Shown piece by piece: positions 19,491 through 20,028 of a DNA stretch of 64,000 nucleotides. The notes beneath the pieces were generated by a model that was not told where the DNA came from, did not search any database, and saw nothing but the letters and a program-made list of their open reading frames with translations. The stretch lies in NCBI RefSeq assembly GCF_009931435.1, contig NZ_CP043414.1; one strand, 5' to 3'. The DNA comes from Escherichia coli. GTDB lineage: Bacteria; Pseudomonadota; Gammaproteobacteria; Enterobacterales; Enterobacteriaceae. Position numbers and translations under genes: made by a program. Numbering within the stretch: position 1 is the first letter of the stretch; the number at the start of each line of letters is the position of its first letter.

Positions 19491-19870
19491 AATGAATCCT
19501 TTTTCGATTTATGAGAATAAATACTCATTTAAGGGTGAAAACATTTTGCCTGCAAATGATTATCAAGAAATATAACATTATCGAAGTATTCAAATTAACA
19601 ACTATTAAATAATATTAAACATTTTTAACGTAAGCATTAAGAATATTCACCTTGTTATCTGCCTGTATTTTAAACAGAATTAAACCAGTACTAGATTCCG
19701 TATGAATATCTCGAAATGTTGCTGTGTATCACATACAAATCATTGCTGCAGGACCATAGTATTTACATAAAGTTTGTCCCCCGGAGGTAGTCATCGCAGC
19801 AATCGAGTAAATTAGCTTCACCACGGTATATTGTTTCCGTAGAATACCCATAATTATAAGAGAGGTTGTT

Positions 19871-19930
19871 ATGATTGAACGTGAACTGGGGAACTGGAAA
19901 GACTTTATCGAAGTTATGCTTCGTAAGTAA
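19871..19930 (+). CDS. ypfM: 19-aa small protein YpfM
   Basis: ATG at 19871 to TAA at 19928-19930 encodes MIERELGNWKDFIEVMLRK; too short for the ORF track; I recall this peptide as K-12 ypfM. Confidence 0.6.
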   Translation: MIERELGNWKDFIEVMLRK

Positions 19931-19990
19931 TTCCTGAGACAAAGTACAAACAGAAAGTACCTGCTGAACAGGTTCTTTATCGGAAAGTTG

Positions 19991-20025
19991 AAAAAGGCGA
20001 CACATTGGTATGTCGCCTTTTTAAT
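19991..20025. terminator. bidirectional intrinsic terminator between ypfM and acrD
   Basis: aaaaaggcgacacattggtatgtcgccttttt: perfect stem flanked by A-run and T-run, 3 nt from the acrD stop. Confidence 0.7.
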
Positions 20026-20028
20026 TGC

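Follow-up and report, generated by a model that had tools for sequence, protein, structure and literature searches.

The spacer between yffB and acrD in this E. coli genome very probably holds a known small-protein gene, ypfM, which has its own promoters, a terminator shared in both directions and a divergent AT-rich control region. The spacer is 538 nt long and occupies positions 19491-20028 of the window, the whole 64,000-nt stretch of DNA that we analysed. In the arrangement that we propose, leftward transcription of a yffB-dapE-ypfN operon would start within the AT-rich tract. Rightward, ypfM would be transcribed from a promoter P1 as a short monocistronic mRNA of ~175 nt, and a second ypfM mRNA, probably of ~260 nt, would arise from an upstream activator-type promoter, P2. 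A symmetric hairpin (A5, GC stem, T5) would end the ypfM mRNA and would also stop the convergent transcription of acrD, while a strong Shine-Dalgarno sequence would drive translation of the mRNA into the 19-residue YpfM. The ypfM gene, its transcript, its translation and the binding of RNA polymerase and H-NS in the spacer were all known beforehand from databases and papers. What we add are small refinements, which concern the face-specific conservation of the peptide, the architecture of P2 and a constraint on the synonymous sites of the ORF.

The yffB-acrD spacer is part of the E. coli core genome

Annotation and sequence comparison identified 19491-20028 as the yffB/ypfM/acrD spacer of E. 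coli. The spacer is bounded by yffB (19134-19490, minus strand) and acrD (20029-23142, minus strand, with the stop codon at 20029-20031), the two flanking genes that a preliminary description of this DNA had named at these places. The gene names and the assignment of the 19-codon ORF to ypfM, also made there, were borne out, the ORF product being 100% identical to the annotated proteins of K-12 (b4606, YP_001165325.1) and RefSeq (WP_001386977.1, 'protein YpfM').

A search with 19300-20200 found a match in 5425 of 5426 complete E. coli genomes, and yffB, ypfM and acrD were annotated under it among the matches listed. Identity over this segment reached at least 99% in only 7 of the 5426 genomes. 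The lineage of the window is ~4% diverged from K-12 (~96% identical here). The two spacers are equal in length (538 nt) and differ by 20 substitutions, all of them outside the ypfM ORF, the Shine-Dalgarno sequence and the promoter elements that we describe below. YpfM has the same 19 residues, position and orientation in both strains, and no difference of substance separates the two. The stretch is ordinary E. coli core genome that has already been described, and the earlier observation was correct but ordinary.

Two further observations were made around this locus. When the neighbouring proteins were compared with those of K-12, 6 of 118 residues differed in YffB, 2 of 375 in DapE and 5 of 1037 in AcrD. 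Between ypfH and ypfN, a match to naRNA4/CssrE (Rfam RF02564) was found at 17691-17767 on the minus strand, with 89 bits against a gathering score of 59.5; it is a REP-type element, and K-12 and E. albertii also carry it at the corresponding position.

ypfM encodes a conserved and translated 19-residue protein

The ypfM CDS, which is annotated in RefSeq, lies at 19871-19930 on the plus strand, consists of 19 codons and a TAA stop (19928-19930) and reads MIERELGNWKDFIEVMLRK. A Shine-Dalgarno sequence, GAGAGG (19860-19865, plus strand), is located 5 nt upstream of the ATG, and the region around it, AAGAGAGG, is nearly invariant across 42 species. With 17 ORFs of 10 codons or more in the spacer, an ORF of the size of ypfM is unremarkable by itself. 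We accept ypfM as real because of its conservation and the published proteomics, not because of the mere presence of an ORF. The YpfM protein was reportedly first tagged in earlier papers.

When the 17 ORFs were compared with 78 non-Escherichia loci, matches were obtained only for ypfM and two overlapping frames. A cysteine-rich ORF of 22 codons (19702-19770), which spans a conserved block, was rejected as a candidate; its frame is not maintained in Salmonella.

We collected 80 loci from other species via YffB, and 71 of them carried a ypfM orthologue upstream of and divergent from yffB. This is the layout of the window as well, in which ypfM is also convergent with acrD. The range of the gene extends from Escherichia, Salmonella, Citrobacter, Klebsiella and Enterobacter to Dickeya, Hafnia and some Yersinia and Erwinia. 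Column entropy, computed over 50 distinct coding sequences, was 0.28, 0.28 and 0.77 at codon positions 1, 2 and 3, respectively, indicating that third positions are ~2.8 times more variable than first and second positions. An 80-codon frame on the antisense strand (19763-20005) contained stop codons in 16 of the 50 distinct sequences. At the protein level, 24 YpfM variants fit the pattern M-[IV]-[ED]-x-E-[LMV]-[GNS]-x-W-K-x-F-I-[ED]-x-M-L-R-K, and the same 14 positions are kept in them.

Top-down mass spectrometry has identified intact formylated YpfM with 100% coverage; the protein was also detected by DIA, quantified by targeted mass spectrometry and found in an earlier large proteome survey (PMC12529367). 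We conclude that ypfM is translated, which the published mass spectrometry settles and with which the coding signature of the sequences agrees. The ORF therefore stands where the preliminary description had placed it, with selection on the peptide seen and the protein detected (PMC12529367). The concern voiced there, that the frame might lack ribosome footprints and the tract might lack transcripts, is answered by the detection of YpfM by mass spectrometry (PMC12529367) and by a Northern blot in Salmonella (PMC2515195).

The ypfM mRNA corresponds to the Rfam family STnc250

A match to the Rfam family STnc250 (RF01409) was found at 19910-20029 on the plus strand (39.4 bits, E 8.6e-6), where it covers the end of the ypfM CDS, the 3′UTR and the terminator. 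The model aligned end to end (positions 1-94), at a score below the gathering score of 42. At the syntenic site in other genomes, the scores were 112.9 bits in Salmonella, 81.5 in Citrobacter, 43.1 in E. albertii, 37.5 in K-12, 35.7 in Enterobacter and 34.8 in Klebsiella. The model has 7 nt where the E. coli 3′UTR has 32, and the internal hairpin differs; the sub-threshold score of E. coli results from this insertion together with the different hairpin. In the window, the internal hairpin is a weak one, ACCTG-CTGAA-CAGGT (core 19959-19973, within 19954-19978, plus strand; -8.4 kcal/mol, z -1.7). It is not conserved, since the K-12 substitution T19962C breaks a pair and other genera carry unrelated sequence at this place, and the body of the 3′UTR is variable in both length and sequence between genera. 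As judged from the alignment and the genomic position, RF01409 corresponds to the 3′ portion of the ypfM mRNA, with a diverged orthologue in E. coli.

In Salmonella, STnc250 has been described as a stable, growth-phase-dependent RNA with a ~220-nt Northern band, and it was enriched 4-fold with Hfq (24 vs 6 cDNA reads); it was first found in small-RNA screens, and its discoverers concluded that it is a small mRNA carrying the ypfM ORF (PMC2515195). RNA-seq in S. Typhi found STnc250 to be the most abundant among the mapped Hfq-bound RNAs (PMC2704369). Rfam types RF01409 as an Hfq-binding RNA and sRNA gene. Hfq binding has been demonstrated for the Salmonella STnc250 only.

Synonymous sites of ypfM are under additional constraint

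We then compared codon usage at residues identical to those of the window, and found the same codon in a fraction of 0.78 in ypfM, as against 56% in yffB, 52% in dapE, 50% in acrD and 57% in ypfN. Restricted to their first 19 codons, these four genes gave values of 46-68%. As a ranking against neighbours in the same, related genomes, which is not a probability, only 1 of 1476 segments of 19 codons in yffB, dapE and acrD reached the ypfM value. The highest segments are located at the 3′ end of yffB, where they overlap the start signals of dapE. Among the codons kept in ypfM are the non-preferred GGG and CTT. The comparison shows a second constraint, acting on the ypfM ORF besides that on the peptide, and our preferred explanation leaves it unaccounted for. 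It could reflect selection for an open, fast-initiating mini-mRNA, or alternatively a pairing or Hfq-contact function.

The latter possibility would make the ypfM transcript a dual-function RNA, which encodes YpfM and also acts by Hfq-dependent base-pairing, with the frozen synonymous sites as the pairing or Hfq-contact region. We consider this unlikely. Co-immunoprecipitation of the Salmonella orthologue with Hfq and its Rfam class as an Hfq-binding RNA are consistent with such a role, but a 4-fold enrichment is modest, many mRNAs are Hfq-bound, and the authors who described STnc250 reclassified it as a small mRNA (PMC2515195). The elevated same-codon fraction and the retention of GGG and CTT would also fit, and conserved secondary structure does not offer another explanation of the constraint: RNAalifold identified none in the ypfM 5′UTR and CDS, nor in the long leader, and neither a hairpin between the leader and the start codon nor the Rfam hairpin GAAG-N5-CUUC showed covariation above shuffled controls. 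However, the 19-codon ORF lies wholly in the zone in which selection favours an open, rapidly initiating mRNA, and such selection could freeze its synonymous sites without any function in trans. Moreover, no target is known, the U-tail is short (5 U) and the body of the 3′UTR is not conserved even within E. coli.

A complementarity between ypfH and ypfM was noticed in some Citrobacter and in Trabulsiella. In Citrobacter sp. R56 (locus L010, 5823-5930, plus strand), the strand antisense to the 3′ end of ypfH reads ...FIEVMLR...MIEREL..., and the ypfH mRNA is thus complementary to two stretches of the ypfM mRNA; weaker versions occur in several genera. The complementarity is absent from the E. 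coli window, a duplex scan was uninformative, and we regard it as probably due to chance.

The E. coli AzuCR is a small mRNA that encodes the 28-residue amphipathic protein AzuC and is also a base-pairing RNA. AzuCR and Spot 42/SpfP (PMC8916003) resemble ypfM in being short monocistronic RNAs that encode a very small, probably helical protein and associate with an RNA chaperone. The likeness to AzuCR is an analogy and not a shared family, and ypfM differs in having no known pairing target, partner or phenotype. AzuC and YpfM were both recorded in targeted mass spectrometry only from low-manganese minimal-medium samples (PMC12529367). That ypfM might be a second AzuCR-like dual-function RNA of enterobacteria is, in our estimate, improbable; such an RNA would exist as a long isoform, made from a class II CRP/FNR-type promoter, and a short isoform made from P1. 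Its 19-residue product would be an amphipathic regulator, and its ORF, with synonymous sites nearly frozen across the family, would serve also for Hfq-dependent pairing.

Far less credible still is that the locus encodes STnc250 purely as a non-coding, Hfq-binding small RNA in which the 19-codon frame is incidental. In favour of this reading, Rfam classes the family as an sRNA gene and the locus was first found in small-RNA screens (PMC2515195). Against it stand the mass-spectrometric detection of the YpfM peptide (PMC12529367), the concentration of variation at third codon positions, the 14 positions that the 24 variants share across a bacterial order, and the nearly invariant, correctly spaced Shine-Dalgarno sequence. 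The portion of the RNA that Rfam covers is, apart from the terminator, the least conserved.

ypfM and yffB are served by predicted divergent promoters

For ypfM as a small-protein gene with its own promoters, the predicted P1 is TTCACC-17-TAGAAT (19817-19845, plus strand), with a start expected near 19852. It was the sole sigma-70-like match in a simple scan of 19100-20400, and the same hexamer pair is listed for ypfM from genomic SELEX (PMC3946193). Across genera, CTTCAC and GTAGAAT are kept, and the 17-nt spacer between them is fixed in length but variable in sequence. P1 is followed by a nearly invariant CATAATAATAAGAGAGG.

The most conserved block of the whole spacer is a CRP/FNR-type 16-bp site, GTTGC TGTGTA TCACA (19718-19733, no strand assigned), which includes the FNR-type 14-mer TTGCT-GTGT-ATCAC (19719-19732). 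The pattern TTGCn-N4-RTCAC(A) was present in 49 of 74 loci. We compared the site with the CRP consensus TGTGA-N6-TCACA and the FNR consensus TTGAT-N4-ATCAA. The half TCACA is a perfect CRP half-site and TTGCT is FNR-like, while the match to either consensus alone is weak; matches to the FNR consensus at 8 of 10 positions occur in the window at chance frequency (37 vs 29 expected). A second match to TTGCN5RTCACA in the window lies at 56359, inside a gene. By-eye comparison with the consensus sequences of MarA/SoxS, PurR, ArcA, IHF, sigma-54, sigma-E and sigma-28 led us to reject these for the conserved site, and only the CRP/FNR geometry fits. The distance from the site to the ypfM ATG is constant (148-166 nt) whereas that to yffB varies from 154 to 890 nt, indicating that the site belongs to ypfM.

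TCACA is followed by a -10-like hexamer at a distance of 21 nt in 40 of the 49 loci, and of 20 nt in the rest, which form one Citrobacter clade. In the window this hexamer is CATAGT (19755-19760, plus strand), and after a further 6 nt comes a CA at which transcription from the candidate promoter P2 would start (+1 near 19767). Twenty-six loci have CATAGT as the hexamer and 11 have CATATT; at the predicted start, no dinucleotide is more frequent than CA (26 of 49). If +1 lies 7 nt past the -10 element, the 16-bp core would be located at -49 to -34, with its centre at -41.5. This is the layout of a class II CRP/FNR-type promoter, and P2 is accordingly a candidate for a second, activator-dependent promoter of ypfM. 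We infer the start positions of both P1 and P2 from the sequence and its comparison between genera. In Salmonella, the P2 transcript is predicted to be ~225 nt long (a 100-nt leader, 60 nt and ~67 nt) and the P1 transcript ~146 nt, and the published ~220-nt band of STnc250 fits the predicted P2 transcript and not that from P1. A promoter with the architecture of P2 (site, -10 element and CA start) had no earlier description that we could find in the accessible literature.

On the opposite strand, we infer a candidate extended -10 promoter of yffB-dapE-ypfN, TGTTATATT (19569-19577, minus strand), from which transcription would start at ~19561 and give a 5′UTR of ~70 nt. The extended -10 block, AATGTTATATT, is common to Salmonella, Citrobacter and E. 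albertii. A published Salmonella yffB::gfp fusion begins at position -97 relative to the yffB AUG (PMC5137417), and the Salmonella block stops 8 nt short of that position. A different yffB promoter has been proposed from sequence (PMC3946193); its hexamers are not well conserved in the conservation profile of the spacer. A Fur-box-like GATAATCATT was also observed at the putative yffB start (19555-19564, minus strand), and yffB is reported to rise 2.6-fold in a fur mutant of Salmonella, for which the predicted site is a different one (PMC3212961).

The AT-rich tract is a divergent control region

The region between yffB (minus strand) and ypfM (plus strand), 19491-19870, is 380 nt long with a GC content of 0.313. 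GC values in 200-nt segments were 0.25-0.33 across 19500-19800 and ~0.53 in the flanks. Moreover, 19451-19750 is the lowest-GC stretch of 300 nt in the 64-kb window (0.283, with the next lowest at 0.33 and an overall value of 0.532), in agreement with the strong AT-richness first noted for the yffB-acrD region. The yffB-ypfM spacer is AT-rich across related genera too (GC 0.32-0.48). In the conservation profile, the tract is mostly free to vary except for discrete blocks, and these blocks behave like promoter and operator DNA. We take the AT-richness to be that of promoter, UP-like and nucleoid-protein-binding DNA, and not a mark of foreign origin. Adjoining the -35 element of P1 is a conserved block, AATCAnAGCAATCGGTTAAAT (19793-19816), which contains a short palindrome, AATCA-N3-TGATT, in several genera; it may be an operator or a UP-like element.

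Genomic SELEX with K-12 DNA in vitro has placed an H-NS site and sites of RpoD holoenzyme in the ypfM/yffB spacer (PMC3946193), and a Salmonella ChIP study found a MarA peak in the yffB/ypfM spacer (PMC10268841). The preliminary description had speculated that the tract could hold nucleoid-protein binding sites or additional small RNAs. The first part of this proposal is supported by the H-NS site found in vitro by SELEX (PMC3946193). For the second part we found no evidence, and an Rfam search of the tract on both strands, with E up to 10, returned nothing but a chance 12-bit match.

A predicted two-way terminator separates ypfM from acrD

The intrinsic terminator between ypfM and acrD is located at 19991-20022 and consists of A5, GGCGACA, an 8-nt loop, TGTCGCC and T5. 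Its arms, AAAAAGGCGACA (19991-20002) and TGTCGCCTTTTT (20011-20022), form an inverted repeat of 12 nt with 100% complementarity. The perfect bidirectional hairpin first seen here is therefore present, with a 12-bp stem that stops 3 nt short of the end originally given, 20025. In the direction of acrD transcription, the hairpin begins 6 nt beyond the stop codon of that gene (20029-20031, minus strand). Its predicted folding energy was -18.6 kcal/mol on the plus strand (z -5.4) and -18.4 kcal/mol on the minus strand (z -6.5), and none of 200 shuffled sequences folded as well on either strand.

When only perfect stems were counted, 63 of 74 loci had a hairpin of A-run, GC stem and T-run after ypfM. 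The stems vary by compensatory changes (GGCGAC, GGCGGC, GCGACC, GGCAGCC and GCAGCAACC), and the flanking A- and T-runs are kept. Conservation of both runs is what a terminator used from both sides needs. Two-way termination, as predicted, is well supported by this anatomy and by the comparison between loci. Known bidirectional terminators of convergent genes likewise combine a GC hairpin with an A-tract and a T-tract; the one between ypfM and acrD differs from them in that its tracts are only 5 nt. With U-tracts this short (5 on each strand), termination may be incomplete.

Very short ORFs before terminators are typical of attenuators, and the tract upstream is the most AT-rich of the window and binds H-NS in vitro (PMC3946193), but it is highly improbable that ypfM is a regulatory leader peptide or the AT island a horizontally acquired, H-NS-silenced insert, given that ypfM has no gene downstream of it on the plus strand, that the terminator borders on the 3′ end of the convergent acrD and that no conserved alternative pairing of a terminator and an antiterminator was found. 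Synteny and conservation across Enterobacteriaceae extend to the spacer, to its length class and to its blocks, and ypfM is expressed, so that the DNA is neither foreign nor silent.

YpfM is predicted to be an amphipathic helix with an invariant face

Returning to ypfM as the gene of a small protein, we analysed the distribution of conserved residues in the peptide. YpfM has a hydrophobic moment of 0.546, which 2.7% of the shuffled versions of the peptide attained. Its invariant hydrophobic residues (I2, L6, W9, F12, I13, M16 and L17) occupy 20-160 degrees of the helical wheel, and its variable positions (4, 7, 8, 11 and 15) 240-340 degrees. YpfM thus reads as an amphipathic helix, the invariant non-polar face of which would contact something.

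Other bacterial proteins of this size act by binding and modulating a partner. The conservation pattern suggests that YpfM may be a single soluble amphipathic helix whose invariant hydrophobic face binds and modulates a larger partner; we hold this proposal tentatively, at somewhat less than even confidence. To our knowledge, YpfM has no known partner, phenotype or structure.

Among the proteins that recur in E. coli proteomes, YpfM is one of the smallest, and its conservation extends across a bacterial order. Its selected helix face, a conserved activator-type promoter that suggests a regulatory input, and a synonymous constraint that can be tested by recoding provide handles for the study of this protein.
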